Shown: positions 16,718 through 39,344 of the stretch, in pieces | How the letters are laid out: every line of letters begins with the position of its first letter | Numbering within the stretch: the stretch's first letter is position 1 | Virus record (IMG/VR): IMGVR_UViG_3300003690_000090 | Span: 8,989 to 72,988 of that record | DNA: 64,000 bases | Source of the DNA: a virus | Reading direction: 5' to 3' (one strand) | The notes under the pieces: generated by a model | Database searches by the model: none | What the model saw: the letters and a program-made list of their open reading frames with translations, nothing else | What the model was told of the DNA's origin: nothing | Translations under genes and position numbers: made by a program

Positions 16718-17104
16718 CTATCCTTGAAACAGGTGGTAAACGGTTTTGCTTTCGGTGCTTTGCTCGGAGCGCTCTGCCATCAGGATCACTTCTCCGGCAT
16801 CGTCGCCGTGGTAGTCGGTCACCATCTTTCGGATTGAGATCGTCTCTCCAAGATTGTAGGGTTCGTCGCTCTTGGGCAGCTCGATGACGATGTCATCGAA
16901 TGCCAGGTCAATCATCGGAACGATGTTCGTGTGAATGCCTCGGGTGCCCATGCATTCGTAAGACCCGATCCCATGGTCCTCAAAGCGGATTGGGCTTTCT
17001 GCGAGAACGCCGCAGAGCTTATCGTGAATCAGGTCACACACATCGAGTTCGTAGTTCTTGTCGTACTGAACAAGAAAGCGTCTTTGCGGATGTTTGCCGT
17101 CCAT
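16718..17104 (-). CDS. Hypothetical protein, first gene of the replication transcript
   Basis: GAGGA RBS and ATG at 17104, downstream of a consensus promoter. Confidence 0.6.
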   Translation of the reverse strand: MDGKHPQRRFLVQYDKNYELDVCDLIHDKLCGVLAESPIRFEDHGIGSYECMGTRGIHTNIVPMIDLAFDDIVIELPKSDEPYNLGETISIRKMVTDYHGDDAGEVILMAERSEQSTESKTVYHLFQG

Positions 17105-17128
17105 TTTGTTCCTCGTGTTTGTGTAGTC

Positions 17129-17157
17129 AATGTAGGTAACCCCCTGCTGTCTGTCAA
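17129..17157 (-). promoter_or_regulatory. sigma70-like promoter for the HTH-primase-VapE operon
   Basis: TTGACA-17 bp-TACATT on the - strand. Confidence 0.7.
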
Positions 17158-17166
17158 GGTAACAGC

Positions 17167-18159
17167 TCATTTCTCTGATCCGGTGTCGCACATCCCCCAC
17201 CGCACGCATCCCTGGTGGCCTGTTGGGTCCGTGAAGAGCTCTACTTGGTCCATGCTCCCGCCTCGTGTCGTGCGTGCCCACTTGATCACTTTGTCGATGG
17301 GCCAGGTGTCTCCGGCCCTCTTGCCGGTCTTGGGGTCTGTGCGAGAGATCGGGTTCTGAAACCACGTCGGTGGCTGGTATCCAAGCGACTCAAAGGTCTC
17401 CCCCTTGGCGGCGTACCGCTTCTTCGCGGCCTCCATGATGACCTTCTCCAGCTCGCCCAGAAGCTCAATGCGTTCTGGTGCGTAGTCGCTCATCGCTCGC
17501 AGCTCTGACTTGCGGGCGAAAATGCATGGGTAGCACCCCACTCGGGTACTCCCTTGTTCCAGATAGAGCCGGCAAGGACGGACCCCGTGGCGGTGGTGGA
17601 TGGCAATGACATCCTTCTCGGACCAGTCGATCAGGGGTCGCCACACATCGCACTTGAACGTCCCGCTGTACTCCCACTCCAGCATCATCGAGCGAGCGGC
17701 GGACTCCTGGGCGCGGATGCCGACCACGTTGATGACCTGGCCCTCGCGCTCCAGCAGGTAGTCCCGAGCCGGATACACCTTGAGGTGCTGGGTACACCAC
17801 CGCCTGACACGAGAGGGGAACATCCCCTTCTTGATGCACAGCCGGACCATCGAGGAGTATTCCACGCCGAGCAATCTCTCGAAGTGTTCTGCCACCGGAA
17901 CCATTTCCTCTGGAATGTCGATCTTTGCCGACAACCTAGTGACGGGCCCAACCACTGCGGGCAGGTCGTTCTCTACGTATTGGTACAAATAGTCATGTTC
18001 CCAACCCGTATCGAAGAAGATGCGGTCGTAGTCGTCGGGGCCGTACCCAAGGTCCATCAGGTGCAGACAGCAGGCCGTGGAGTCCTTGCCGCCGGAGACG
18101 GACACTACCAGGCGGCGCCCATCCAGTTTTTCATCGAGCTCTTCGCGTGTCATCTGCAT
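17167..18159 (-). CDS. PAPS-reductase-family (PP-loop) protein
   Basis: SGGKDS, F.DTGWE, RWCT..LK, GIRA.ES..R, PL.DW, R.GC.PC motifs. Confidence 0.85.
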   Translation of the reverse strand: MQMTREELDEKLDGRRLVVSVSGGKDSTACCLHLMDLGYGPDDYDRIFFDTGWEHDYLYQYVENDLPAVVGPVTRLSAKIDIPEEMVPVAEHFERLLGVEYSSMVRLCIKKGMFPSRVRRWCTQHLKVYPARDYLLEREGQVINVVGIRAQESAARSMMLEWEYSGTFKCDVWRPLIDWSEKDVIAIHHRHGVRPCRLYLEQGSTRVGCYPCIFARKSELRAMSDYAPERIELLGELEKVIMEAAKKRYAAKGETFESLGYQPPTWFQNPISRTDPKTGKRAGDTWPIDKVIKWARTTRGGSMDQVELFTDPTGHQGCVRWGMCDTGSEK

Positions 18160-19001
18160 TCCCTTACGTTTCGAAACAATGGCGCATCGCTGCGGATTCG
18201 TCTGCGAGATTCCTCTGCGTACTGCTGGTTGAGCTCAACGCCAAGAAAGTTTCTGCCCAGCCTGTTCGCTACTAATCCGGTTGTTCCGGCTCCAGCGAAT
18301 GGGTCGAGTACCAGGTCTCCGATTGCACTCCCGGCCTTGATGCAGCGCTCGGCCAGGTCGGGAACCATCACAGCTACGTGACTGCCGGCGTACCTGGCCA
18401 CCGGCAAAGACCACACGTCCCTCGGTCGACGCCCCTCGAGTTCCCCGGCGTTGTATACGCGCCCGCTGTAGGTCTCGTTACCGCTTTGCTTGTGTCCGCC
18501 AAAGCCAGCTGATATCGTCACGTCCGGATGCTTTAGTGGCTCGAGTACAGCCTGCATGTCGAAGTAGTAGTGCGGGTTCTTTGCCAGCAGGAAGACGTGC
18601 TCATGAGCTGGGGTGAATCGGTCGGTGACTCCCCCGCCTGCAGGAATGGTGTTGGTCTTGTGCCAGATGATTTCCGAGCGCAGCACCCAGCCTCGTTCTT
18701 GCAAAGCAAGGGCAACTCGCCACGGAACACCCATGAGTTGCTTGTCGACATAGCAGTCTCCAAGGTTCAGCCACAGCGTGCCGTCTTCTGCCAGCACATG
18801 CTTCACCTGGTCCATGCGTGCGCAAATGTTGAACACGTACTCTTCGAGAGTATGTTCCGACCCGAGCTCGTTCTCGGTCCCGTAGGAACGGAGATTCCAG
18901 TAGGGTGGGCTCGTGACGCAGCACCTGGCCACACCAGCCTTCTGGCGTTGAAGCTCGTCGAGACAGTCACCGTGTAGTACTACAGCCCAGGTGTCAGCCA
19001 T
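18150..19001 (-). CDS. DNA N4-cytosine/N6-adenine methyltransferase (beta class)
   Basis: TSPPY catalytic motif precedes the VLDPFAG.GTT SAM-binding motif; G.EL. Confidence 0.92.
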   Translation of the reverse strand: MADTWAVVLHGDCLDELQRQKAGVARCCVTSPPYWNLRSYGTENELGSEHTLEEYVFNICARMDQVKHVLAEDGTLWLNLGDCYVDKQLMGVPWRVALALQERGWVLRSEIIWHKTNTIPAGGGVTDRFTPAHEHVFLLAKNPHYYFDMQAVLEPLKHPDVTISAGFGGHKQSGNETYSGRVYNAGELEGRRPRDVWSLPVARYAGSHVAVMVPDLAERCIKAGSAIGDLVLDPFAGAGTTGLVANRLGRNFLGVELNQQYAEESRRRIRSDAPLFRNVRECR

Positions 19002-20235
19002 TGGATGCCCCATTGATGGCATTGATGCGCAACACGCAGGAGTTACAGGTTCCGCATGGTTCGCCTGATTTTGCATTTGCAGAGTAGCAACTCCAAGTAG
19101 TTTCCAAATCAATGCCCAGACCGATGGCTCGGGCGATCACCTCTGGCTTCCGAAGTTCTATTAGCGGGGCGACTATGCGAACGCCTGTGTCCTGCTCAAC
19201 AAGCCTGCAGATATCAGAGACGAAGCCTGGCCTGCAGTCCGGGTAGTCCTCCCAGTCGTCTCTGGTCGGGCCATACCAAACCTCTTGAATGCCTTTGGCG
19301 GCGGCATAGTTGACTGCCAGCGAAAGCATGATCAGGTTCCGGCCTGGGATCATCCTTGAACCAGGCTCGCCGGATGACGCCTTCATGGGCTCCATCCCGC
19401 GAATCGTTGGCATCAATCGCAACATCTCGACATCGTGTTTGCGAGCCCATTCTGCTGCAACTCGAAACTCATCGGGTCCGGATGGTTGCATGTAGGAGAA
19501 GTGGAGCAGTGAATGCAGCACTCCCCCCTGGTGCGCCATGGTTGCTAGGACGGTGGAATCCACTCCACCGCTGAACAGAACTGCGACTGACTTCATATGA
19601 TTTCCCATAGGGGTAGTTGGTTTTTGGCATTGGTGAGTAGGGGAATGCTGACTGCAAACCTGCTTGCGCTTGTGCCATCAAACGAATCCGCACCAGCGAA
19701 CTGGCATAGGCGTATTCTCCTGGCGGTGTTCACTCGCCCCACATGGAAATAAGCGCCGGTCTCCCGTGCCAGCTGCCCCCATTGCCGCATCGTATCCAAC
19801 TTCCAGTCTGTTGTGCCGCCCAAGAAAATGCCGATTTCATCGCACAACAGGGAACGGATATCGCCTGGTGTCATGCCATCCTGAACGGCTATGAGTTGCC
19901 TGTGTCCCACGCCGCGCAGCCTGGGCAGCCACTCTTCTGAAAAGCGTAGCGACTCGTGCCCCCCCCAACGATGTCGGGCACGACGATGAACTCGGCGTTG
20001 TCGCCAAGAGATTCGACGACGGCCTCAAAGGCCGGGACATCGAATGGAAGGCCTTTCTGGTAGGCGGTCCAAGCTCCATTGTCTATTGCGTATGGAAAGC
20101 CTTCATGTCGGTGCTTACCTGTGGCGGACACCAATATGTGCCATCCAGATTTGCGCAGGGCATCAAGGTTTCGACGTGTTCCTGTTCGGCTTGCATAGGG
20201 AATCATCGTCCTGGTTGCAGCCCAGGTGTCAGCCA
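18983..20235. repeat. 18-bp direct repeat CAGCCCAGGTGTCAGCCA (18983-19000 and 20218-20235) flanking queC + dpdA-like
   Basis: Exact match read from the sequence; both copies encode (M)ADTWA on the - strand. Confidence 0.9.
18994..19596 (-). CDS. queC: 7-cyano-7-deazaguanine synthase QueC-like
   Basis: SGGVDS, PGRN, YPDCRP, TWSCY, CGTCNSC..R motifs. Confidence 0.9.
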   Translation of the reverse strand: MKSVAVLFSGGVDSTVLATMAHQGGVLHSLLHFSYMQPSGPDEFRVAAEWARKHDVEMLRLMPTIRGMEPMKASSGEPGSRMIPGRNLIMLSLAVNYAAAKGIQEVWYGPTRDDWEDYPDCRPGFVSDICRLVEQDTGVRIVAPLIELRKPEVIARAIGLGIDLETTWSCYSANAKSGEPCGTCNSCVLRINAINGASNG

Positions 20236-22504: not shown

Positions 22505-22883
22505 GAGGCACCGCCATCAGAGCCCGTGCCCAGTGCGATGGAGACCTGTGCCTTCAGGATCTCTTTGATGGCTTCCGCCTTGGCCCCGACCCGCAACGTC
22601 TTGGCGATGTCTCGGATCTTGCTCACGGTGTTGGTTTCCGCGCCAAGCACCCGCATCAAGATTGCCGCGTCATTGAGGACCCCCGCAGGCGCAGCCGTGC
22701 GTTGGCCTCGGTGTGCCCTGCCGCGCAGAAGTGGTGCGGGTACGTGCCCTCTTTGACCACGACCAACAGCTCTGCCAGGTACACCCCTTCGTCTTCTTTG
22801 ACCGTCACGACGTCCAGGCGGGACAGAAGGTCTTCATCGATTTCGATGGCCGGGATGGTGTTGCTTAGTTCGTTGCGGTTCAT
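22501..22883 (-). CDS. Hypothetical protein (~127 aa), apparently split by a 1-nt frameshift at a G5 run
   Basis: One extra G at 22680-22684 joins ...EANARLRLRG to VLNDAAILMRVLG...GGAS, ending in an ATGA overlap. Confidence 0.5.
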
Positions 22884-22918
22884 GAGTTGTCCTCGTGTTG
22901 TTTGTTGTTGTCCTATAG

Positions 22919-22947
22919 TAAATAGTCGAACCTGATAACGGTGTCAA
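22919..22947 (-). promoter_or_regulatory. sigma70-like promoter with CGTTATCAG element
   Basis: TTGACA-ccgttatcaggttcgac(17)-TATTTA, followed by a GACAACAAACAACAACACGAGGA-type A/C-rich leader. Confidence 0.7.
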
Positions 22948-29534: not shown

Positions 29535-29544
29535 CACAGCGGGG

Positions 29545-29710
29545 CAGCGCTACCCGGTCCGCCGCCCCCTGGGCAGAGCTACATGGACCGCCGCCCGCAA
29601 GGCAAGCGCTACCCGGCCTGCCACCAGCCGGAGCTCCTGTTGGAGCCGCGCATGAGCTGGGCAAGCGCTACCCGGACCGCTCCCAACTGGGCGAGTACTA
29701 CCCGGACCGC
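29545..29710 (+). repeat. GCTACCYGG motif cluster 3 (5 copies, ~30-bp periodicity)
   Basis: Copies near 29545, 29575, 29604, 29663, 29693. Confidence 0.85.
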
Positions 29711-29789
29711 TGCCCACCGTTGTTACTATCATCCGCCTGGTCAACTCGAACCCGGGCAGTTCCGATCTCGCCGGCCTGGGCTCGAGACG

Positions 29790-29826
29790 CAAAGAAGCCC
29801 AGCCGACCTAGTGGCCGACTGGGCTC
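29790..29826 (-). terminator. Intrinsic terminator
   Basis: AGCCCAG...CTGGGCT stem with a U-rich tail on the - strand. Confidence 0.5.
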
Positions 29827-29856
29827 GGGTGCCGGGCTAAGCCCGGGGACACCACC

Positions 29857-30165
29857 CTATGGCTCTGGCATGTTGTGCTCATCGCCGAAGAAGTAGCCCT
29901 GATCTGGCGCGTTCAGCGAGACCTGGTATTCGGTCGGCTTGCCTGCTTTCTCCCAACACGCGACATGGTAGCAGCACACCTCCATCACGTTGGATACCTC
30001 CGCGCCATCCACGCGCCCATACCCGTCGTACTCGCCTTGGCGGATCGTGCCGTCCTTCTCGATCACGACCACCTGGCGCATCCAATTGTTGATCGGGCTT
30101 GTCGCCCATTCACTCAGCATGGGGTGCTGGCATGCGTTGCAGTTAGCGCTGAAAAATCCCATCAT
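29857..30165 (-). CDS. Small Cys/His protein, 102 aa
   Basis: MMGFFSANCNAC...GEYDGYG...YHVAC...DQGYF. Confidence 0.65.
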   Translation of the reverse strand: MMGFFSANCNACQHPMLSEWATSPINNWMRQVVVIEKDGTIRQGEYDGYGRVDGAEVSNVMEVCCYHVACWEKAGKPTEYQVSLNAPDQGYFFGDEHNMPEP

Positions 30166-30338
30166 GCACCCCCTTCGGTCTTGTGGGGCGTTGTCTTGGG
30201 TGCCTTGTACCAAAACCGTTCTTCCTTGCACCACGACAGCCCGGTGTAGATAATGATCTGCCCCTCGTTGTCCGTGTCTATCGTTGCAAGGGGCAGCAAT
30301 TGTGCGAGTGCTTGTACCAATTGATCCATAGTCATCAT
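30162..30338 (-). CDS. Small protein, 58 aa
   Basis: DNEGQIIIYTGL motif; ATGA overlaps. Confidence 0.55.
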   Translation of the reverse strand: MMTMDQLVQALAQLLPLATIDTDNEGQIIIYTGLSWCKEERFWYKAPKTTPHKTEGGA

Positions 30339-31084
30339 GCACCCCCTTCTGCCTTGCGCCACCCGGTGTACCGGTTGACCTTCGGACCGTGCGCGACGAT
30401 GGCCACCGACGGGCGACGGGCACCCCTCGAGGTACCATCGCACTGCCTGCAGGATGCGCAGTCCAGCACCTTGCCTGCTTCCTCTGCAGCCGGGCACACC
30501 CGTTCCCACGGTTGCAAGGCTTCGGTTGCAAGGCGCGTTCTAAACGTCCGCCATCCCAGCGAATGAGCGATCGTCGCTTCGGCGGGTGTGTCGACCGACG
30601 CCATGACAAGATCCGCCCATTCGGACGCGTCCAGATCTGGCCACCTATGATCGTATCCGGTCCACCCCTTGGCATCCTGCAGCATCGCACGCCATGTGGG
30701 AGAGGGTACGACCGACGGGTTTCCATAGGTACCCATCCGAACCATGCGACCGTCAAGGTGCGCGGGCAATTCCGAGACGTCCGGGCGGATCACGTTGCCC
30801 CGGTGGTACGCTTGCCAGACTGCAAGCGGACCCCGGAAGGCGAGCACGTAGCACGCGCCAGACCCGCCCGATGCGACCGAACGGTGTCCGCAGTCCCCGC
30901 AGACTGCGACGTCATCCCCGGACCGGATAGCGTCATGTGGTGCGATATCCCTGTGCATAAGGTAGGTCTGGACCAGATCGCCCGTCTTGGCATTGGCGGA
31001 CTGGTAGTCAAGGTCCTGCGTGATCCCGATAATCGGTGATCCGTCTATGGGCGATGGCCCCTCATAGAATACGATGCGTCGCAT
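30335..31084 (-). CDS. Cys-rich putative Fe-S protein (gp88/radical-SAM-like phage family), 249 aa
   Basis: N.KTG, CGDC, CYV, R.G.YG.P, GY.H.W, MAS.D, GWRTF, CPA...CASCRQC, ..AHG. Confidence 0.6.
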   Translation of the reverse strand: MRRIVFYEGPSPIDGSPIIGITQDLDYQSANAKTGDLVQTYLMHRDIAPHDAIRSGDDVAVCGDCGHRSVASGGSGACYVLAFRGPLAVWQAYHRGNVIRPDVSELPAHLDGRMVRMGTYGNPSVVPSPTWRAMLQDAKGWTGYDHRWPDLDASEWADLVMASVDTPAEATIAHSLGWRTFRTRLATEALQPWERVCPAAEEAGKVLDCASCRQCDGTSRGARRPSVAIVAHGPKVNRYTGWRKAEGGA

Positions 31085-31132
31085 GTGGTGTGTCCGTTGT
31101 TTGTGGTGTCCGACGGGTAGCCCGTCCCATGT

Positions 31133-31160
31133 AATGTAACCCGCCCTGATAACGGGGCAA
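31133..31160 (-). promoter_or_regulatory. Early-type promoter with CGTTATCAG element
   Basis: TTGCCC-cgttatcagggcgggt(16)-TACATT. Confidence 0.6.
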
Positions 31161-31167
31161 CCCGTCG

Positions 31168-31337
31168 CAAGCGCTACCCGGACCGCCGCCCACATGCCGG
31201 GAGGCCTGGCACAATGCAAGCGCTACCCGGACCGCCGCCCACATGCCGAGGCGCAAGCGCTACCCGGACCGCTATGAGCTGGCACAATGCAAGCGCTACC
31301 CGGCCCGCTGCTGGCAAGCAAGCGCTACCCGGTCCGC
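31168..31337 (+). repeat. GCTACCYGG motif cluster 4 (5 copies of CAAGCGCTACCCGGnCCG)
   Basis: Copies at 31168, 31217, 31254, 31290, 31319, between divergent promoters. Confidence 0.9.
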
Positions 31338-31397
31338 TGCCCGCTGGGCACGACCTTGTGGAGCCGGAGACCTGGTCTCGCATGCGTGTCTCGATGG

Positions 31398-31425
31398 GTG
31401 CCCCGTTATCAGAACAGGTTACATT
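31398..31425 (+). promoter_or_regulatory. Early-type promoter with CGTTATCAG element
   Basis: GTGCCC-cgttatcagaacaggt(16)-TACATT. Confidence 0.55.
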
Positions 31426-31454
31426 ATCCATGGACACAAACCACGGAGGTCCAC

Positions 31455-31778
31455 ATGAAACCCCCCACCTTTGAAACCCACAACGACACCAAGGTCGACA
31501 TCAATGGCACGCACCTGCAGGGGCACATCGACACCACGTTCGGTGCCCTCGTTTGCACGTTCGGAGAACCGACAGTCGGTGACGAATACAAGATCGACTG
31601 GGAATGGGAGATTGAGTTTGCAGATGGCACCGTTGCCACTGTCTACAACTGGAAGAATGGCCCCAACTATTGCAGGTCCGGAGGGAAACGCGCCAACCAG
31701 ATCACCGATTGGCACGTTGGCGGTCACAAGGGTGAAGCGTTGGCGCTGGTGCAGCAGGCGCTGGGAGGTCTGGCATGA
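31455..31778 (+). CDS. Small phage protein, 107 aa
   Basis: GGAGGT RBS; GTHLQG...FGEP...K..WEW...T.YNWK...WHVGG. Confidence 0.7.
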   Translation: MKPPTFETHNDTKVDINGTHLQGHIDTTFGALVCTFGEPTVGDEYKIDWEWEIEFADGTVATVYNWKNGPNYCRSGGKRANQITDWHVGGHKGEALALVQQALGGLA

Positions 31779-31999
31779 TCTATCGAGGTAGCCTCGCAGA
31801 AGGTCCAGCGCGTGAGTCCGACGGGTTCCCCAAGTGGATTGAATGGAAGGGGGTGCAGTACCAGACACCCCACTATGACGTCATCCATGAATGGGTCTAT
31901 GACAGCATTGTGGATGCCATCGACGGCACCCCCATCGAGCCCGATGGGATCACCTGTGAGGGTTGCCCCTCATGGCTGCTGGCATTGGGTCTGATCTAA
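31775..31999 (+). CDS. Small phage protein, 74 aa
   Basis: DG..IEPDG....G.PSWL..LGLI; GGAGG RBS. Confidence 0.65.
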   Translation: MIYRGSLAEGPARESDGFPKWIEWKGVQYQTPHYDVIHEWVYDSIVDAIDGTPIEPDGITCEGCPSWLLALGLI

Positions 32000-32036
32000 A
32001 CACGACACCGGGAGGTAGGGATGGAATAGCGCATCC

Positions 32037-32072
32037 GCCCCGTCATCCGCAAGGGTGGCGGGGTTTCCTATT
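32037..32072 (+). terminator. Probable intrinsic terminator
   Basis: GCCCCGTCATCC-GCAA-GGGTGGCGGGGT stem followed by TTCCTATT. Confidence 0.5.
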
Positions 32073-32087
32073 GGCCTGGTGCAAGCG

Positions 32088-32153
32088 CAAGCGCTACCCG
32101 GACCGCCCCCGCCTGGGCACGGGACCGTGGAGCCGTAAGCGCTACCCGGCCCG
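32088..32153 (+). repeat. GCTACCYGG motif cluster 5 (2 copies)
   Basis: Copies at 32088 and 32137, between convergent terminators. Confidence 0.85.
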
Positions 32154-32220
32154 CCACCGGTTGTGTCTACTATCATCACACCAGCTGGCAGCTCCGACCT
32201 GGTAGAGCTCAAGCCCAGCA

Positions 32221-32259
32221 CAAAGAGAAGCCCCGCCGAGCTTGGAGCCGGGCGGGGCG
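32221..32259 (-). terminator. Intrinsic terminator
   Basis: GCCCCGCC/GGCGGGGC stem with a TTCTCTTTG tail on the - strand. Confidence 0.55.
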
Positions 32260-32478
32260 GTTGGCCTGGTCGAACGTTAGGCCGGTGAGATCAGTCGTCG
32301 GGTGGCCTGGGCAGAATTGCCATGGCGCAGAAGAAGAGAACGACAAGGGCAGTGCATGCCAAGGTGGTCATGAGGAAGTCGAACATGTGGGGCCTGGTCT
32401 TGTGGTGAGTGAGTTGTTTTGATTTGGTTTGGGGGTGCGGGACGGGAGGAACCACCCTCCCGCCCCGGGTTGTACAAC

Positions 32479-33105
32479 CTACCCAAGCATTTCCTCTGCG
32501 CCGATGGACTTGCCGCCCATGACCAGACTGTCAAAGTTGGAACCATCCAGGCGCAGACCGTAGTTCCTCCAGTACCGTTGGCGCAGGTCAAAGGTGTGCT
32601 TGACCCACGGCTTGATGCCGGTGGTGATCTTGGTGCGCACGGTTTCGGCACGCTTGACTTCGGTTCCCTCTGCTGCTGCGCCCTTCCACATTTCCAGACC
32701 GACCACAAGAACCTCGTCCTCATTCTTGGGGTTGCGCATCAGGCGACCGTCAACCACGGTGACCAATTCAGTCTTGCGGTCATGCTCACCGGCAAGGGAC
32801 TTGCTTGCGCTTGCGATCAATTCATCAATCGCAACGGCGATATCAGCAGCAGTGGGAACCATGCGGATAGGGTCCGCGCCCTTCTGGCGAACCAGCGGGT
32901 TGACCATGTCAGGGTGTGCAGCCAGTGCCACGGGGTCAAGGGACCGGAGGGTTTCCAAATCCTTTCGGATGACGTTCTTGTACGACACGCCGATCTGCAA
33001 TTTGCGATGCCGGCTTTCGCCTTCTTTCGTGACATGTCCACGGATGAAGGCGATCTGTCCGCCTCCGGTTTCGGCAATCATGGTTTCGATGGTGGGGGTG
33101 GCCAT
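32479..33105 (-). CDS. Hypothetical protein, 208 aa
   Basis: GGAGG RBS; MATPTIETMIAET... Confidence 0.65.
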   Translation of the reverse strand: MATPTIETMIAETGGGQIAFIRGHVTKEGESRHRKLQIGVSYKNVIRKDLETLRSLDPVALAAHPDMVNPLVRQKGADPIRMVPTAADIAVAIDELIASASKSLAGEHDRKTELVTVVDGRLMRNPKNEDEVLVVGLEMWKGAAAEGTEVKRAETVRTKITTGIKPWVKHTFDLRQRYWRNYGLRLDGSNFDSLVMGGKSIGAEEMLG

Positions 33106-33154
33106 GGTTGGCCTCCATTGGTTTGGGTTGTCACCGGAGGGTTCCGGTACAAAC

Positions 33155-33182
33155 AACCTATCGTCATGGGTGATAACGTCAA
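33155..33182 (-). promoter_or_regulatory. Early-type promoter
   Basis: TTGACG-ttatcacccatgacga(16)-TAGGTT; contains CGTTATCA. Confidence 0.5.
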
Positions 33183-33240
33183 GGGCACAGCCCGACCCCT
33201 GGCCCCCATGCCCCATGCCGGCATGCCCCCACACCCCCGC

Positions 33241-33371
33241 GTTACCTGGCATACACCCACCAAGTGCTACTCGGACCGCCACCAATTGACCAAGAGCTAC
33301 CCGGACCGCCATCAATTGAGACCAACCAAGCGCTACCCGGACCGCCATCAATTGACGGAGTGCTACCTGGC
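33241..33371 (+). repeat. GCTACCYGG motif cluster 6 (5 copies in ~30-36-bp units with CAATTGA)
   Basis: CAAGnGCTACyCGGACCGCCAyCAATTGA repeated three times, plus flanking copies. Confidence 0.9.
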
Positions 33372-33425: not shown

Positions 33426-33453
33426 ATGCACCGTTATCAGAACGGGTTACATT
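33426..33453 (+). promoter_or_regulatory. Early-type promoter with CGTTATCAG element
   Basis: ATGCAC-cgttatcagaacgggt(16)-TACATT, then a GACAACAAACACGAGG leader. Confidence 0.55.
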
Positions 33454-33481
33454 ATGTATAGACAACAAACACGAGGTGAAC

Positions 33482-33730
33482 ATGGGAAAGCAAGTAGTAG
33501 TATTCGAACTTCCTGACTGCGATATCTGCGCTGATGGAACCAAAGCAAAGTACGACGCGAAGACTCGAAGGGGTCCGTGGGGCAACCTGTGCGAGCCGTG
33601 CTGGAAGCGACACACCTATCGCCACCTTGGCACGGGGTTCGGTCAGGAACTGGTTCTGAAGGTCACGGACGGATCAGACCACCTGCGCAATGTCCGGGCT
33701 GTTCTGGACATGTTGGGGGACAAGTCATGA
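33482..33730 (+). CDS. Small Zn-finger protein, 82 aa
   Basis: CDIC...YDAKT..GPW..LC..C...LG.G.GQ; GAGGTG RBS. Confidence 0.7.
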   Translation: MGKQVVVFELPDCDICADGTKAKYDAKTRRGPWGNLCEPCWKRHTYRHLGTGFGQELVLKVTDGSDHLRNVRAVLDMLGDKS

Positions 33731-33918: not shown

Positions 33919-34057
33919 TCAACCGGGCTGGCATCCCAAACTGCCTCCTTCTTCTTCTCTTTGCCTCCACAGGTAGCCTCCACGGTAGCCTCCACGGTTG
34001 GCACTATCATCAAGGTGTGGCTACGTAGTTATCATGACAACCAACACCGAGGGATAC

Positions 34058-35323
34058 ATGGAAGAGGACGTGAGATACACCACGCTTGATCTGTTTGCGG
34101 GTGCAGGGGGAGCATCATTGGGACTACGAGACGCAGGGTTTCATCATGCGTTGTGTGTAGAGTGGGATGAGGATGCAACGGAGACGTTGTTGGCAGCAGA
34201 CTTTCCAGCAGCGAATGCAGACGTCAGGGAGTTGGATGTCTACAAGACAATCGAGAGAGTCGATCTGTTGTGGGCATCGCCACCATGCCAGGCGTTCTCA
34301 ACTGCTGGGCAGAGGAGGGGTGCGGAGGATGACAGGAACGGATGGCCGTGGACTCTTGAGGTGATTGACCACTTGATGGAGCGTGGTGTTGGTCCGAGGT
34401 ACGTCGTCTGTGAGAATGTACAGGGACTGACGTACCACCAGGCGGAGTGTGTTGGGGGGAACAGTGGTTGTGCTGGTTGCTATTGGGAAGGGTGGATCAT
34501 TCCAGAGTTCAAGAAGCGCTTTGCGTGGGTAGGTCATACGACGTTGGATGCTGCAGGCTTTGGAGTACCACAGCATAGGAAGCGTGTGTTCTTGGTGGCG
34601 GGTGATGGACCGATACGGTGGCCAGTACCAACGCATGGACCACCGAATGCAGCGAAGCAGGGTGCATTGTTTGGTGGTGGTGTCAGGCCGTATGTCACGG
34701 TGCGTGATGCATTGAACATTGACGCATGGGCTACGGAGACGAACACGAGCTCGGGTATGGCTCGAGTAGCGAGGAGTGCAGATACTCCATCGTGTTCACC
34801 AGTAGCGGGAGGCAAGGCGCTGGGTGGATTGCTTGAGGTAGACACTAGGGTGATGGGTGTCTCATGCAATCCATTCAAGAAGGATGAGAACGGAGGTCCA
34901 CTCAAGGAAGACAGAACGTACAAGGACATCACGGATACACCAGCTGGGTGTGTGAGTTCTCGTGGTCCATTGGACAATCAAGGTCCATTCGTAGTGAGCG
35001 ATGGTGCTTCAGTACCAGGTCCAGGCAGTGAGCCATGGAGACTGGATGAACCATCAGCAACTGTGACTACTACAGAGGAGAAGGGTACGAGGGGGAAGCA
35101 TATGAGTGGTGGACCAGACAGAGCTGCTGACACTATGTGGCGTGGTGCTGGTGTGAGACGATTGACATGGCAGGAGTGTGCAGCGTTGCAGTCGTTTCCA
35201 GTGGAACATCCATTTCAGGGGAAGACGAAGAAGAGTCTGTATCGCCAGGTAGGGAATGCAGTACCACCACCGTTGTCTCGTGTCTTAGGTCAGGCCGTGA
35301 AGGAGGCATTGGATGCAGGCTGA
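34058..35323 (+). CDS. DNA cytosine-5 methyltransferase
   Basis: DLFAGAGG, SPPCQ.FS, ENV, GVPQ.R.R, RRLT..E...LQSFP, Q.GNAVPP motifs. Confidence 0.95.
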   Translation: MEEDVRYTTLDLFAGAGGASLGLRDAGFHHALCVEWDEDATETLLAADFPAANADVRELDVYKTIERVDLLWASPPCQAFSTAGQRRGAEDDRNGWPWTLEVIDHLMERGVGPRYVVCENVQGLTYHQAECVGGNSGCAGCYWEGWIIPEFKKRFAWVGHTTLDAAGFGVPQHRKRVFLVAGDGPIRWPVPTHGPPNAAKQGALFGGGVRPYVTVRDALNIDAWATETNTSSGMARVARSADTPSCSPVAGGKALGGLLEVDTRVMGVSCNPFKKDENGGPLKEDRTYKDITDTPAGCVSSRGPLDNQGPFVVSDGASVPGPGSEPWRLDEPSATVTTTEEKGTRGKHMSGGPDRAADTMWRGAGVRRLTWQECAALQSFPVEHPFQGKTKKSLYRQVGNAVPPPLSRVLGQAVKEALDAG

Positions 35324-35603
35324 TGTAGTGGATGTAGAGGATGGAGAGTTCTTTCCATTGAGTGAGGCGGAGTTGGGAATAGACATCGTCTGGTTCATCG
35401 ATGGATTGATTGATGCAGTGACGAGCGGGTTGGAGAGCACATCGAAAGGATTGTTAGTGGGTGAGCCATTGTGTGAGGAGGTACCAGCGACAGGGGTTCT
35501 ATCTGTGTACGTACCGGTGTCGTACTGTTGGATGGAACCAATGTGTGTTCGTATAGCGCAGGTAGGTGCTGGGTACTGGCAGTGGGGTGGTGAGGGAGAC
35601 TGA
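35313..35603 (+). CDS. Hypothetical protein, 96 aa
   Basis: AGGAGG RBS; overlaps the MTase end. Confidence 0.5.
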   Translation: MQADVVDVEDGEFFPLSEAELGIDIVWFIDGLIDAVTSGLESTSKGLLVGEPLCEEVPATGVLSVYVPVSYCWMEPMCVRIAQVGAGYWQWGGEGD

Positions 35604-36535
35604 TGCTTGGGTATGAGATTGTATTGAGCCAGTTCTTTCCATCTGACGGAGTGTTGGGTGTAGACGAACGACACATGGACATCTCTGGTGTAGAGCCGGA
35701 GGTGATGGACCGTATTGGTGCGATGGTTGGTGGTGGACCAGTCGAGCTGACGGAGATTGTTCGAGCTCGTGGGAAGGCAGGACATCACTTGCTACCAGGC
35801 GATGTGGTGTGTCGGTATGCTGGTATAGGTGAGCAGCGTTGTGATGTGATTCGGTTGTTACGGGATGTTGTGTATGCGGACGGTGGTGGAGTCTCCAGTG
35901 AGCAGCAGCGAGCGATAGAGGAGCTGCGTCAGCGCTGTGTAGAGGAGCATCGTTGGGGGGTGGTACGTCGTGATGAGTTGATGGTGATCATGGATGCGTT
36001 TGGTAGGGGGGTGGTGTTCAGTAGTTACGGTGCATTTCGGTGGTGGAGAAAGCCGATGGAGATGTTGTCTAGCAGGCAGCGTCATACTGATCCAACGCCG
36101 GAGAGGGTAGCTGCTGCTTGGTGTGCGATACGTGCAGTGCATGGTCATTTGCACGAGGTGTATGGGGGTGGTGGTTCTGTGGGTATGGGTGCTTTCACAA
36201 GGACTGAGCGTATAGCCAGGCTGGTGTACAACTTGCGGATGCGGTTGGGGTGTGTGGCTGGTGATGGGGAGGTAGTGAAGATGCACTACTTCTGGGGTTT
36301 GAAGCATGCTCCGTGGTGGGACCGAGTGTTTGATCGTCATGCTGCTGGGTTGTTTCTACCGAAGCCATTGCTTCACGTATGTGGTCAACGGTCGACGAAG
36401 TGGGTGAAGTCGAGCGTGGTGGACATGGACTTGGTTTATCGATTTGCTGGTTGGCCGGAGTGGGTTGGCCAGGGTCCATTGAAGTTCACGAGGGTAGACA
36501 AAGATGATGTTCGAGGTAGTTGGTACTGGAGATGA
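35603..36535 (+). CDS. Hypothetical protein, 310 aa
   Basis: TGATG-coupled start; long ORF. Confidence 0.6.
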   Translation: MLGYEIVLSQFFPSDGVLGVDERHMDISGVEPEVMDRIGAMVGGGPVELTEIVRARGKAGHHLLPGDVVCRYAGIGEQRCDVIRLLRDVVYADGGGVSSEQQRAIEELRQRCVEEHRWGVVRRDELMVIMDAFGRGVVFSSYGAFRWWRKPMEMLSSRQRHTDPTPERVAAAWCAIRAVHGHLHEVYGGGGSVGMGAFTRTERIARLVYNLRMRLGCVAGDGEVVKMHYFWGLKHAPWWDRVFDRHAAGLFLPKPLLHVCGQRSTKWVKSSVVDMDLVYRFAGWPEWVGQGPLKFTRVDKDDVRGSWYWR

Positions 36536-36857
36536 GGCTGGTATTCATGCATTGAAGCGTGAGCTTCGTCAGTTTGTAGGTGCATGGCACTTGTTTCTGT
36601 CGGGTGAGGTTGTTGAGGAGCATCGGTGGCGGTGTGTACCTGGCTGGGCGAAGAAGGTTCCTGGGATGCTGGACGAGGAATGGATCTTGTTTGATTTGGA
36701 CAAGCATGTTGGTAATCCGTGGCGGATTCGGTTTTTGCGTAGTGTGTTGGACCAGGTGGTTGGTTGGAGTGCGAGTGGAGATCTGATCGAGGGTGTATTG
36801 CCGTCGATTGACACAGCGGTAGAGATGTTCGAGGAGTTGTTTGGTGTTGAAGAATGA
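36504..36857 (+). CDS. Hypothetical protein, 117 aa
   Basis: Fills the operon gap before rusA. Confidence 0.5.
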   Translation: MMFEVVGTGDEAGIHALKRELRQFVGAWHLFLSGEVVEEHRWRCVPGWAKKVPGMLDEEWILFDLDKHVGNPWRIRFLRSVLDQVVGWSASGDLIEGVLPSIDTAVEMFEELFGVEE

Positions 36858-37287
36858 GCTGTTGCTGGCAGCGTTAGTGCCAGGTGATCCGATTGGTAAG
36901 GGCAGGCCGCGTGGCACTGTGCGTGGTGGATATGTGAAGATGTACACGCCGAAGCGGACAGCTGATTGGGAGAGGGCTGCGGCGTTGCTGGTCCGGAATG
37001 CATGGAAGCGTGCGCCGTATGAGGGTCCAGTGCATGTGGAGTTTGATGCTGTATTTCACCGGCCGAAGCGATTGCTTCGCAAGCGAGATCCTGAGCAAAG
37101 GGTCTGGCACACGTCCAAGCCAGACATAGATAATGTTGCGAAGAGTGGATTGGACAGCTTGGTTATGGCTGGAATGATCCGAGATGATGTGCAGTGTGTC
37201 TCATTGCAATGTCGGTCAATGTATTCATCGAAAGTAGAGGGTCCTTGTTTGGAGGTGCGTGTGTATTCAGTTGACGAGCTTCCTTGA
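36841..37287 (+). CDS. rusA: RusA-family Holliday junction resolvase
   Basis: P.GKGRPR, YTP..T, KPDIDN..K..LD.L, DD.Q motifs. Confidence 0.88.
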   Translation: MVLKNELLLAALVPGDPIGKGRPRGTVRGGYVKMYTPKRTADWERAAALLVRNAWKRAPYEGPVHVEFDAVFHRPKRLLRKRDPEQRVWHTSKPDIDNVAKSGLDSLVMAGMIRDDVQCVSLQCRSMYSSKVEGPCLEVRVYSVDELP

Positions 37288-37310
37288 CAGGGCTACGTTT
37301 CGATCGAGGT

Positions 37311-37381
37311 CACTTTCATTTGTGATCCTCGTGTTTGTGTTGTCGGGAGCCCCCACAGTCCAGTGGGGGTTCCTTTTTTTT
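37311..37381 (+). ncRNA. Candidate anti-RBS small RNA 1 (may derive from the rusA 3' UTR)
   Basis: CAT...TCCTCGTGTTTGTGTTGTC is complementary to early leaders; ends in an 11-bp stem + T8. Confidence 0.45.
37346..37381 (+). terminator. Intrinsic terminator
   Basis: GGAGCCCCCAC-agtcca-GTGGGGGTTCC + T8. Confidence 0.85.
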
Positions 37382-37411
37382 GCGCAAACGGTTGCTTGCG
37401 TTATTCTTGTT

Positions 37412-37504
37412 ATGTCAAGCTACCAGCCTGTCCTCGGTTAGCGGACCACACGCCGCTTGCCTCCCTAAAGCCCCCAGGTGCTCAACAGCGGCCTGGGGGC
37501 TTTT
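37412..37504 (+). ncRNA. Candidate small RNA 2 (~90 nt) with its own promoter and terminator
   Basis: TTGCGC-16-TATTCT upstream; TGTCCTCG and GCCTCCCT anti-SD tracts; 12-bp terminator stem. Confidence 0.4.
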
Positions 37505-37510
37505 CATTCT
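37467..37510 (+). terminator. Intrinsic terminator
   Basis: AAAGCCCCCAGG...CCTGGGGGCTTT followed by a T-rich tail. Confidence 0.75.
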
Positions 37511-37550
37511 TGGGTAACGGGGTATTATTGGACATCGATCCGGAGGGGAC

Positions 37551-39344
37551 GTGGCCTCGAGTAAAGAATCATATGACGCCCTTCTTAGGCAGATCAATAG
37601 TGGGGGCAACATCTCTCGACTTGGGGGAACGTCGGAATGGTCCCGAGGTGGCCCTGGGGCCAGGAGTAACTGGGAGATGCTTTCTGACGGCTTCGACGAC
37701 ATGCTTCGAGAAGTGCAAGCCGATGTGAATAGCGGCAGGATGAGTAAAGAGGCTGCGGAGGAATATGTAGAGGCTCGTGTGGTCGCCACAAAGAGGATCT
37801 TTATTGAAAGGACAGACACAAAGTTTGAGGGAAGTATTCGTGGTGGGCCGGGAGGGCTACGGTGGATGGATGCCCCCGAAACAGAGGCCGGGCGCATGAT
37901 GGAGGCGAGCGCGGCGCAGGCGGAAAGAAAAGTTCCTGGCTCGCGGCAGACCTTGGCAAATGTACGGGTTCCAAAACGGGGACTGGGTGGCTTCTCATTG
38001 GAGGACCTTCTGAAAATAGGCAAGAAAGGGGCCAAAGCAGTGCCTTTGTTTGGTCTTGCAGCGGAGTTCGCTGACATCCCCGAGGCGCAAGCCAGCACGA
38101 TGGGTTCGAGGTACGAGAGTGCCCCCAAGGCAAGAGAAAGGCAGGAGCGGGACATTGAATCTGAACAGTTCCTGGCCGATGAGCCCCCGTCTGGCATGAC
38201 CCGGTTCGCTGGGCCGGGAGGGGGGAAACGATACGCCGCCGAGCGATTTGGAACGAGCCAGGTTGACGTGATCCGAGAAGCGGAGCGCAGTTACCTGCAG
38301 GGCATTGCGAATGCTACGGGTGGCGAATCGCGGTTTACGATTGAGGAGATGCAGCAGGCGTTGGCCGAGGGACCGCCGCAGGAGACTGTAGAGCGCAAAG
38401 AGCTGGAGGAATCGGGATTTCTCGAGCCGACGCAGCGGATGCGTGGATTCTTTGAAGAGATTGGGATGACTGGCGAGCATGGTCCGGTGGAGGAACCGGA
38501 TGCGCCTCCGGAGGTTGAGGCTCGCATAGCGATTGGATCGAGTGCGATTATTGGTGGTCCGGGTGCGGGGACGATGACGCAGAAGAACTTTGTGGACTTG
38601 GTGAATCGCCAGACGAAGCAACCGATTGGTCGGTTCCGTGTTGGTGACTACGTGCCTGGTCTGGGCAACATCGACGACATTGGCGAGCGTGTTTCGCGCC
38701 GACCTGGCCGTCCGGAGATTGACGTACCTGCGATTCGGATTGTCCCGGACGACAAGTCAGTGAAGCCGTACTGGATCATGGGTCACGACTTGGTGCCACC
38801 TGGTACGGAAGATGTCTTGGCGCAGTGGATGGAGCCAGAGGGAAGATGGGGGCGGGGGAGGGACGCTGAACGAGCATTCGGGAACCTTATGCTTCAGCAG
38901 GAAGAGGTGCACGAAGCGGACATGTCGTTTGATCCAACCGCCTACTTCCCATTCGGGGAGAAACCGCCTGGACTAAGGCTCGATCCTTCACTAAGCGACT
39001 ATGAACATATGGAATCCGGCGACCAAGTCCCCTGGGAGTCCGACCTGTATGATTACAGTCAAGTCCCCTCCTGGCAGTCCGACCTGGACCAGGGATTGTT
39101 GGCCGACGACCAGCAAGTTGCAGACGATGAGCTCTTGCAGGACCTGATGGGTCTCGAGGCCGGCAGCTCGGAAGAGGCTGCGATGCGGTCTATGCGCCGC
39201 GAGAATGGTGGTGTTGCGGCGGAAGAGGTTTACGGCGTGAGCTTTGATGGCGAGGACTTTGTGGCTGTGGACACAGCTGGCAGGGGAACGTACTACTACA
39301 ACTCAGATACTGGCGAAAGTTTTTGGGGTGACACGGAGGGTTGA
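37551..39344 (+). CDS. Large acidic hypothetical protein, 597 aa
   Basis: GGAGGGG RBS with GTG start; long ORF. Confidence 0.7.
   Translation: MASSKESYDALLRQINSGGNISRLGGTSEWSRGGPGARSNWEMLSDGFDDMLREVQADVNSGRMSKEAAEEYVEARVVATKRIFIERTDTKFEGSIRGGPGGLRWMDAPETEAGRMMEASAAQAERKVPGSRQTLANVRVPKRGLGGFSLEDLLKIGKKGAKAVPLFGLAAEFADIPEAQASTMGSRYESAPKARERQERDIESEQFLADEPPSGMTRFAGPGGGKRYAAERFGTSQVDVIREAERSYLQGIANATGGESRFTIEEMQQALAEGPPQETVERKELEESGFLEPTQRMRGFFEEIGMTGEHGPVEEPDAPPEVEARIAIGSSAIIGGPGAGTMTQKNFVDLVNRQTKQPIGRFRVGDYVPGLGNIDDIGERVSRRPGRPEIDVPAIRIVPDDKSVKPYWIMGHDLVPPGTEDVLAQWMEPEGRWGRGRDAERAFGNLMLQQEEVHEADMSFDPTAYFPFGEKPPGLRLDPSLSDYEHMESGDQVPWESDLYDYSQVPSWQSDLDQGLLADDQQVADDELLQDLMGLEAGSSEEAAMRSMRRENGGVAAEEVYGVSFDGEDFVAVDTAGRGTYYYNSDTGESFWGDTEG

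Follow-up and report, generated by a model that had tools for sequence, protein, structure and literature searches.

Bacterial small RNAs derived from 3' untranslated regions (3'UTRs), such as CpxQ, DapZ and SroC, use the terminator of their parental mRNA, carry a conserved single-stranded seed just upstream of it and pair with the start regions of other mRNAs. In phage T4, many early messages are shut off at their translation start regions by proteins, RegA and RegB, a repressor and a nuclease that cuts Shine-Dalgarno (SD) sequences. The c4 antisense RNA, found in phages P1 and P7, arises by processing of an operon transcript that also carries its target. According to one published account (PMC12197685), the gene for this RNA does not lie opposite its target, and pairing around the ribosome-binding site keeps the target from being translated; other short phage antisense RNAs, sar of P22 and OOP of lambda, lower the expression of a phage regulator. 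The phage antisense RNAs known so far act mostly on one lysogeny or immunity gene, and regulatory 3'UTRs have been described mainly in bacteria.

Here, we describe a short element that lies before the terminator of a phage rusA gene and resembles, in reverse complement, the leaders of early operons of the same phage. It may be an anti-leader at the untranslated 3' end of the early operon that runs rightward from 33482 to rusA; as such, it would pair with early leaders and lower their translation. Of the readings considered here this has the best support, yet we put it forward tentatively and would not yet call it probable.

The genome and the rightward operon

The phage genome has 72,988 bases (one virus record), and the window, i.e. 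the whole stretch of 64,000 nucleotides that was analysed, corresponds to bases 8989-72988, most of the genome. This is an uncultured marine phage: DNA runs with parts of 36600-37700 carry marine, seawater or hydrothermal-vent metagenome labels, and 20 rows from 17 studies hold at least part of this interval. Among the runs listed for it, none is an RNA run over the element, and the single run that may be RNA (X20) gave contigs over 36615-36808 only. Pfam identified in the window RecT, a YqaJ-type exonuclease, a VapE-like protein, a Toprim primase, a PAPS-reductase-like protein, QueC, two DNA methylases, a DEAD/ResIII helicase, RusA and the large terminase, and PHROGs gave matches for two of 18 proteins, both to families of unknown function. 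Genes on the minus strand run from 22883 to 9393, with helicase, primase and recombination genes among them, and, beginning with 33482, all large open reading frames (ORFs), or called genes, are on the plus strand. The last gene of the rightward operon, whose first is 33482, is rusA (36841-37287, plus strand; stop codon TGA at 37285-37287), which encodes a Holliday-junction resolvase (Pfam RusA, E = 6e-26). Since relatives match RusA in tblastn over residues 14-148, the alignment beginning only at residue 14, the true start of rusA is probably near 36880. We infer the early/late boundary at the element, already proposed in a sequence-only reading of this DNA, from gene order only.

Two other features of this gene map may be mentioned. 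Directly upstream of the promoter of the 17104 gene, at 17167-19608 on the minus strand, genes for a PAPS-reductase-like protein, an N6/N4 DNA methylase and QueC are adjacent, and this trio looks like a DNA-modification (7-deazaguanine-type) module. The skew of G over C on the plus strand is very strong at 34000-38000 (0.32-0.34 in 2-kb windows), a segment that spans the methylase-to-rusA operon, and is far above that of the rest of the window.

The element and its matching leaders

From the rusA stop (37287) to the intrinsic terminator T1 (37345-37381, plus strand; a 12-pair G+C-rich stem, a 6-base loop and T8) there are 57 bases, which contain CAT-TTGTGA-TCCTCGTGTTTGTGTTGTC: CAT at 37317-37319, TTGTGA at 37320-37325 and a 19-mer at 37326-37344, all on the plus strand. 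The element therefore has a 3'UTR location, 30-57 bases past the rusA stop, and abuts T1, sharing this terminator with the mRNA. T1 has a fold of -24.3 kcal/mol, the best among the 15 terminator-like sites that a script listed genome-wide. Between the rusA stop and the T1 stem, the plus strand reads ...GAGGTCAC TTTCATTT GTGA T CCTC GTGTTTGTGTTGTC. Read on the minus strand, the same region is GACAACACAAACACGAGGATCACAAATG, whose layout is that of the leaders of the 17104, 33482 and 22883 genes, the 19-mer being the reverse complement of the shared early leader GACAACACAAACACGAGGA. The 19-mer has neither dyad nor direct-repeat symmetry. On the minus strand there is also a mini-ORF, MKVTSIET plus stop (37293-37319), behind an SD-like GAGGA, which we judged non-coding. 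The sequence-only reading had singled out this arrangement just before a strong plus-strand terminator, and its coordinates and strings, as well as the sequence of the mini-ORF, all proved correct.

When the genome was searched with up to three mismatches, the 19-mer matched only itself and 17110-17128, in the latter case at 18 of 19 positions (one mismatch), which bears out the figure first given. The second site is part of GACTACACAAACACGAGGAACAAAATG (17102-17128, minus strand), the leader, SD and ATG of the 17104 gene, which is the best predicted target (18/19 plus the ATG). The anti-start CAT is, as had been pointed out, at nearly equal spacing in the two places, 6 bases from the 19-mer in the element and 5 at 17102-17104. 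Two shorter complementarities that had been reported are also present, 12 nt with the 33482 leader (ACAAACACGAGG, at 33465-33476 of the plus strand and separated by 5 bases from the ATG at 33482) and 10 nt with the 22883 leader (TCCTCGTGTT, common to the element and to 22890-22899, just before the minus-strand ATG at 22883).

Each of the three leaders opens an operon and follows a sigma-70-like promoter. Leader and ATG are GGACAACAACAAACAACACGAGGACAACTCATG for 22883, the head of the helicase operon (22881-22913, minus strand), and GACAACAAACACGAGGTGAACATG for 33482 (33461-33484, plus strand), the 5' end of the operon whose 3' end is the element. As for 17104, it is the first gene of an operon encoding a small putative HTH protein (without a Pfam or PHROG match, HTH being the call of the earlier reading), the Toprim primase and the VapE-like protein. 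The predicted promoter of this operon, TTGACA (17157-17152)-17-TACATT (17134-17129) on the minus strand (17129-17157), keeps both hexamers while its spacer varies in two relatives, G001 (77-89% DNA identity) and G002 (92%), in both of which the 19-mer of the leader is identical. Similarity between the element and 17104 sets in directly behind the -10 box, where the transcript is predicted to start, and runs up to the ATG; the promoter and the coding part of 17104 have no similarity to the element.

Identity, context and chance

Taken alone, the 18/19 identity is at chance level, with about two such pairs expected per genome: 20 block-wise Markov simulations gave 0-5 pairs at 18/19 in the simulated genomes, with a mean of 2.25. 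Likewise, when 97 translation-start regions were used as queries in blastn-short, the 15-base exact core that links 17104 to 37326 tied with one other non-repeat, unrelated 15-base exact match (35313 to 21921). It is context, not identity, that lifts the pair formed by the element and the 17104 leader above chance, because the similarity is bounded by the transcript start and the ATG, is non-coding, is antisense to local transcription and is conserved. The element lies in one of few non-coding stretches, and the complement of the ATG is kept as well.

Conservation in relatives

A metagenome scan with RusA yielded eight loci from 215 pattern matches, six of which carry the element (L065; L066, L067 and L068; L069 and L070) and make, with the window, four distinct sequences. 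The element was seen in these loci and the 17104 leader in G001 and G002, never both in one relative genome. The 19-mer is unchanged in three of the four lineages; in the L066 group it is shorter by one T (a 1-base deletion). To its left, the adjoining 25 bases have many substitutions and indels across lineages. Neighbouring genes have a four-fold-site identity to the window of 0.89 in L065 (109 sites), 0.63 in L066 (411 sites) and 0.73 in L069 (436 sites), and the changes in the 19-mer number 0, 1 (the deletion) and 0, respectively. The neutral expectation for 19 sites is P = 2.6e-3 for no change (L069) and P = 2e-3 for at most one change (L066). This indicates that the 19-mer is under purifying selection, even allowing for the picking of the best-conserved block of a spacer of ~270 bases, which makes a plain relic unlikely; by this measure, the block is functional in some way. 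The difference between T at 37341 and A at 17125 is fixed, since it is kept in all four element lineages and in three of three leader lineages. The rusA-to-late-gene spacer as a whole is a mosaic of conserved blocks: GGCTACGTTT, GAGGT, the 19-mer, T1, GCTTGCGTTAT, CTACCAGCCTGTCC, a second hairpin named T2 and the late -10.

Other collections added little on close relatives, for which there was no match in phage records, none in viral contigs by RusA, the 597-aa late protein or the conserved spacer-block pattern, and none in genome contigs. A 15-mer scan of viral contigs returned 60 loci and two relatives (L008 and L016), both over the 17110 site and not the element. Distant syntenic relatives, in which rusA is followed by a terminator and late genes, were found in G003-G006 (RusA 63-68% identical) and G007 (62%). 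In six sequences, their pre-terminator slot holds a conserved GT/CT-rich block, GTGTTGTT(T)CTCT, with a CAT nearby, and this block has no matching leader. Duplex scans of the G003-G006 slots in their own genomes gave no outstanding partner (best z about -5, mostly non-start regions), and 13-mers with at most one mismatch were about as frequent as expected by chance. The best partners of the G007 slot are other start regions (z = -6.0 and -5.3), and it does not match its own 17104-type leader, TACATT-GACAACACCACACC.... A start-region position matrix did not make the minus-strand reading of the element unusual in any of six genomes, a weak comparison based on crude gene calls in which 7%-36% of start-codon-anchored positions score at least as high as the element, and the 7-mer ACAACAC is enriched in start regions of two of the six genomes only. 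Because distant relatives are without a matching target and without significant cross-clade support, the relation between the element and 17104 is, as far as these genomes indicate, a feature of the window's own clade.

The leaders themselves are a changing family. The 33482 leader varies among relatives: it carries a base substitution in the L066 group and three inserted bases in L070. Since the 33482-type leader of L070 (L070:600-670) equals the 22883 leader of the window (22884-22913) over 22 bases, GACAACAACAAACAACACGAGG, leaders of this family would appear to change by AAC/ACA repeat slippage or by exchange between loci.

Two repeated motifs near the early promoters deserve separate mention. 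An operator-like sequence, CCGTTATCAG(A/G)..., recurs at 22925-22941 (in the 22883 promoter spacer), at 31403-31421 and at 33431-33449 (before the 33482 leader, as the dyad CCGTT-ATCAG-AACGG), with the 31403 and 33431 copies sharing 18 of 19 positions, which suggests that one repressor may serve several early promoters. A 21-base repeat, GCAAGCGCTACCCGGACCGCC, has 13 copies in 29543-33346 (at most three mismatches; 0 expected in shuffles), all on the plus strand, in clusters at 29543-29681, 31167-31338, 32087-32155 and 33260-33346, the last of which is ~100 bases upstream of the 33482 promoter region. These copies look like iterons or repeated protein-binding sites, and the matching region of G007 has a different repeated motif.

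Strand and RNA structure

RNAalifold, applied to the four lineages, predicts a hairpin HP1 (8 pairs), 13 unpaired bases (GTGTTTGTGTTGT) and T1 (12 pairs). HP1 (37306-37330, plus strand) forms between GAGGTCAC and GTGA(T)CCTC in folds of the four lineages; its loop holds the CAT at 37317-37319, and the anti-SD CCTC sits in its 3' arm. The stretch that follows, GUGUUUGUGUUGUC (37331-37344, plus strand), is predicted to be single-stranded in the consensus fold and is the candidate seed. Five pairs of the consensus vary by a one-sided change to G-U or U-G and three by a double change in one sequence. In HP1, two of the eight pairs have U-G variants and two are changed on both sides in one sequence, and all 12 pairs of the T1 stem are kept in at least three of the four lineages, with G-U changes and one double change. 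Such G-U and U-G variants fit a plus-strand RNA, because on the minus strand they are A-C mismatches. Single-sequence folds agree with the consensus except for an additional outer stem, weak and rich in G-U, that involves the rusA stop region, so that the 13-14-base 3' part of the 19-mer, unpaired in the consensus, is weakly paired there.

To the right of the element, the sole promoter-like site found on the minus strand (37597-37568) is in a 700-base segment that is replaced in all close relatives. By eye, no minus-strand promoter was found in the conserved spacer, where a TTGACA is without a suitably spaced -10 and is absent from the L066 group. The mini-ORF, offered by the sequence-only reading as the mark of a relic minus-strand leader, did not hold up, since neither its frame nor its length is kept: it has 8, 8, 8 and 31 codons in the close relatives and 7, 61, 27, 1, 1, none and 21 in the distant ones (11 sequences in total), and its frame is shifted in L069/L070. 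Because the genes from 33482 are all on the plus strand, T1 is clean, and the minus-strand promoter and the mini-ORF are unconserved, we would expect plus-strand RNA over the element and not minus-strand RNA. A hydrophobic ORF on the plus strand, from GTG at 37322 through T1, was also considered and was dropped, as the 1-base deletion of the L066 group breaks its frame.

The same evidence bears on the nature of the RNA. That a 3' end lies here before a terminator stands as first proposed; a separate sRNA gene, which was part of the same proposal, is unsupported, and the element more probably forms the end of the rusA mRNA.

Predicted pairing

The 28-base element was scanned for duplex formation against 36,476 windows on both genome strands, which gave a mean of -11.9 kcal/mol (sd 3.6). 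Besides the element's own complement, the 17104 leader pairs best (-33.1 kcal/mol), followed by the 22883 leader (-27.9 kcal/mol); next come two CA-rich minus-strand start regions (29184 and 27088) and the 33482 leader (-25.3 kcal/mol). In cofolds of the 94-base 3' end with 85-91-base 5' ends, in which intramolecular structure is paid for, the net gain is -19.5 kcal/mol for 17104, -20.6 for 22883 and -13.6 for 33482, and the controls give -6.9 (late-gene start region) and -6.0 kcal/mol (rusA start region). These last two start regions were rejected as partners.

Pairing of the element with the variable 33482 leader shows no consistent advantage of own over cross combinations. The own pair is best in L066 (-29.5 against -26.9 and -26.0), makes no difference in the window, and in L070 (-28.4) is worse than the combination of L070 with the window leader (-33.2). 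Compensatory covariation could not be shown with the 17104 leader, because this leader and the element are both nearly invariant. The idea of an RNA directed against several ribosome-binding sites, with which the analysis began, is therefore borne out as regards position, complementarity and conservation, but not as regards a consistent own-versus-cross advantage or the same target in distant relatives. Two further facts qualify it: the anti-SD half of the element is itself paired in HP1, which counts against an antisense reading, and the 33482 leader lies on the same predicted transcript as the element, so that pairing in cis is possible.

The spacer beyond T1 and the late-gene start

Downstream of T1, T2 is a second plus-strand hairpin with a short T run (about 37467-37509), and the T1-T2 spacer is ~85 bases long (37382-37510). 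The blocks of this spacer that are invariant in the four lineages are TTGCGC-16-TAT(T/G)CT, a weak promoter-like pair, CTACCAGCCTGTCC, and a hairpin of GCGCAA with TTGCGT in which G-U variants occur; the L066 group is without about 30 bases of the spacer. The T1-T2 spacer could be a separate small RNA or a late-promoter control region. Directly after T2 stands a promoter-like TTTTCA-16-TATTAT (37501-37550). Relatives retain its -10, as TATTAT or as TATGAT, and the site is followed by GGAGGGGAC-GTG, where the 597-aa gene begins; in distant relatives, a -10 is found within about 30 bases after the rusA terminator. The first ~700 bases of the 597-aa late gene (37557-38262) have no counterpart in six close relatives, which have a different 5' part there, and this is a mosaic joint right after the start codon.

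A possible anti-leader and its rivals

If the element is an anti-leader, each plus-strand transcript that ends at T1 would carry HP1, the GU-rich single-stranded GUGUUUGUGUUGUC and T1 with its U8 tail. The single-stranded stretch would pair with the short, CA-rich early leaders over their first 14 bases, and the opening of HP1 would extend the duplex across the SD towards the AUG, with the 17104 replication operon as the best partner, the 22883 helicase operon next and the element's own 33482 leader weaker. Ribosome loading would be blocked and the duplex possibly cleaved. The more the rightward transcripts, or a stable 3' fragment, build up, the less the early and replication genes would be translated. 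In this scheme, we infer the accumulation of the RNA, its pairing in the cell, repression, and the choice between a processed small RNA and an intact mRNA end. A bolder form of the idea, a global shut-off by RNA only, would have one RNA end, complementary to a 5' leader common to all early operons, titrate and silence every early message, its own included, at the sites of ribosome loading, with the slot before the rusA terminator kept for an anti-start sequence across distant deep-sea phages and drifting with the start-region flavour of each clade; this we find quite unlikely.

The element could instead serve another purpose, its likeness to leaders being historical or incidental, either in the structure of the 3' end (termination, mRNA stability) or as a DNA site, for a phage protein that would also bind just downstream of early promoters. 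Conservation alone does not single out an antisense role, since the whole spacer is a mosaic of conserved blocks, and in distant relatives, too, the terminator is immediately preceded by a kept GT/CT-rich block (GTGTTGTTCTCT), for which there is no matching leader. However, such a purpose leaves unexplained both the similarity from transcript start to ATG and the kept CAT, and a fixed protein site agrees poorly with leaders that differ by indels, which RNA pairing tolerates, and with a 19-mer devoid of symmetry, so we regard this as unlikely, albeit less so than any other alternative considered here. A functionless relic, that is an inverted copy of a leader module left by recombination, either in young lineages or repaired from other copies, would suit a phage that encodes RecT and a YqaJ-type exonuclease and whose leader modules are alike across loci and lineages, as the leader shared by L070 and the window illustrates. 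Against it, the 19-mer has 0-1 change where four-fold sites are down to 63-73% identity, the fixed T-to-A difference is kept in all lineages, and the flanks are not homologous to other leader loci, which would make conversion of a 19-28-base tract unlikely. We consider a relic improbable, below even the bolder scheme above.

The similarity to a ribosome-binding site might also be taken at face value, on the minus strand, where a leftward antisense transcript would have the terminator hairpin as its 5' stem and, behind it, the leader with SD and ATG. It would then matter in itself that a short ORF, whatever its sequence, is translated, for example to stabilise or regulate an RNA antisense to rusA. 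The SD-like GAGG and the ATG are kept in all four close lineages with spacings of 7, 9 and 6 bases, all in the working range, while the sequence between them changes, as it does in start regions; the ATG is at most 45 bases from the hairpin in 10 of 11 sequences, distant relatives included, and the window has its promoter-like site at 37597-37568 on that strand. Yet the segment with this site is missing from all close relatives and no consensus promoter was seen by eye in the conserved spacer to the right, the length and frame of the ORF are unconserved, the neighbouring genes are all on the plus strand, the hairpin G-U variants fit that strand only, and the SD-like part in clade 2 is AGAG, as against GGAG in the real start regions of that clade. 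Such a site is, in our estimation, even less probable than a relic. Least probable of all, we think, is that the element acts in cis only, the 3' end pairing with the 5' leader of its own mRNA (33461-33476) in a loop that damps the first gene or sets stability, with the 17104 match as a by-product of all early leaders being alike. Leader and complement are on one predicted transcript, they agree at 16 positions, apart from a 2-base bulge (duplex energy -25 to -26 kcal/mol), and in the L066 lineage, where both partners are changed, the own pair is the best of three combinations (-29.5). But the 17104 match is far stronger (-33 to -35) and is preserved in each of the lineages compared, and in L070 the own 33482 leader, with its 3-base insertion, pairs worse than the window leader would.

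Comparison with known systems

Should the anti-leader reading be true, this would be a timing device made of RNA alone, in which the end of a phage mRNA silences several early operons, including replication genes, in a widespread group of uncultured marine and hydrothermal phages; should one of the rivals hold, this would be an ordinary conserved 3' end structure. In a limited literature search, in which a published case may have been missed, we met no phage 3'UTR aimed at the shared leader of its own early operons.

Of the known systems, c4 and the bacterial 3'UTR-derived small RNAs come closest, although the element matches neither by sequence. An Rfam scan of the whole window gave no family at the gathering score, and a relaxed scan of 37150-37600 gave five sub-threshold matches, none of which was to a c4 family. 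While c4 of P1/P7 lies upstream of its target in one operon and concerns one antirepressor gene and immunity, the element is in a 3'UTR beside a terminator, its best partner is 20 kb away on the other strand, and there are at least three candidate operon heads. The element is not a cis-encoded antisense RNA of the OOP or sar type either, since those are transcribed opposite their target gene, which makes complementarity automatic, whereas its own partners (17102-17128, 22881-22913 and 33461-33484) are 4-20 kb away. The proposed action on many early start regions is like that of RegA/RegB in T4, although the agent would be RNA here and is protein there. In its layout, the element is like RNAs of the CpxQ/DapZ/SroC type, with which it has in common a 3'UTR location, a shared terminator and a conserved, predicted-accessible seed upstream of the terminator hairpin. 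Those are host RNAs for which processing, Hfq binding and targets have been shown experimentally, whereas the element is a candidate predicted from sequence, and its complementarity (18/19, up to 25/28) is much longer than the usual seed of 7-12 bases.
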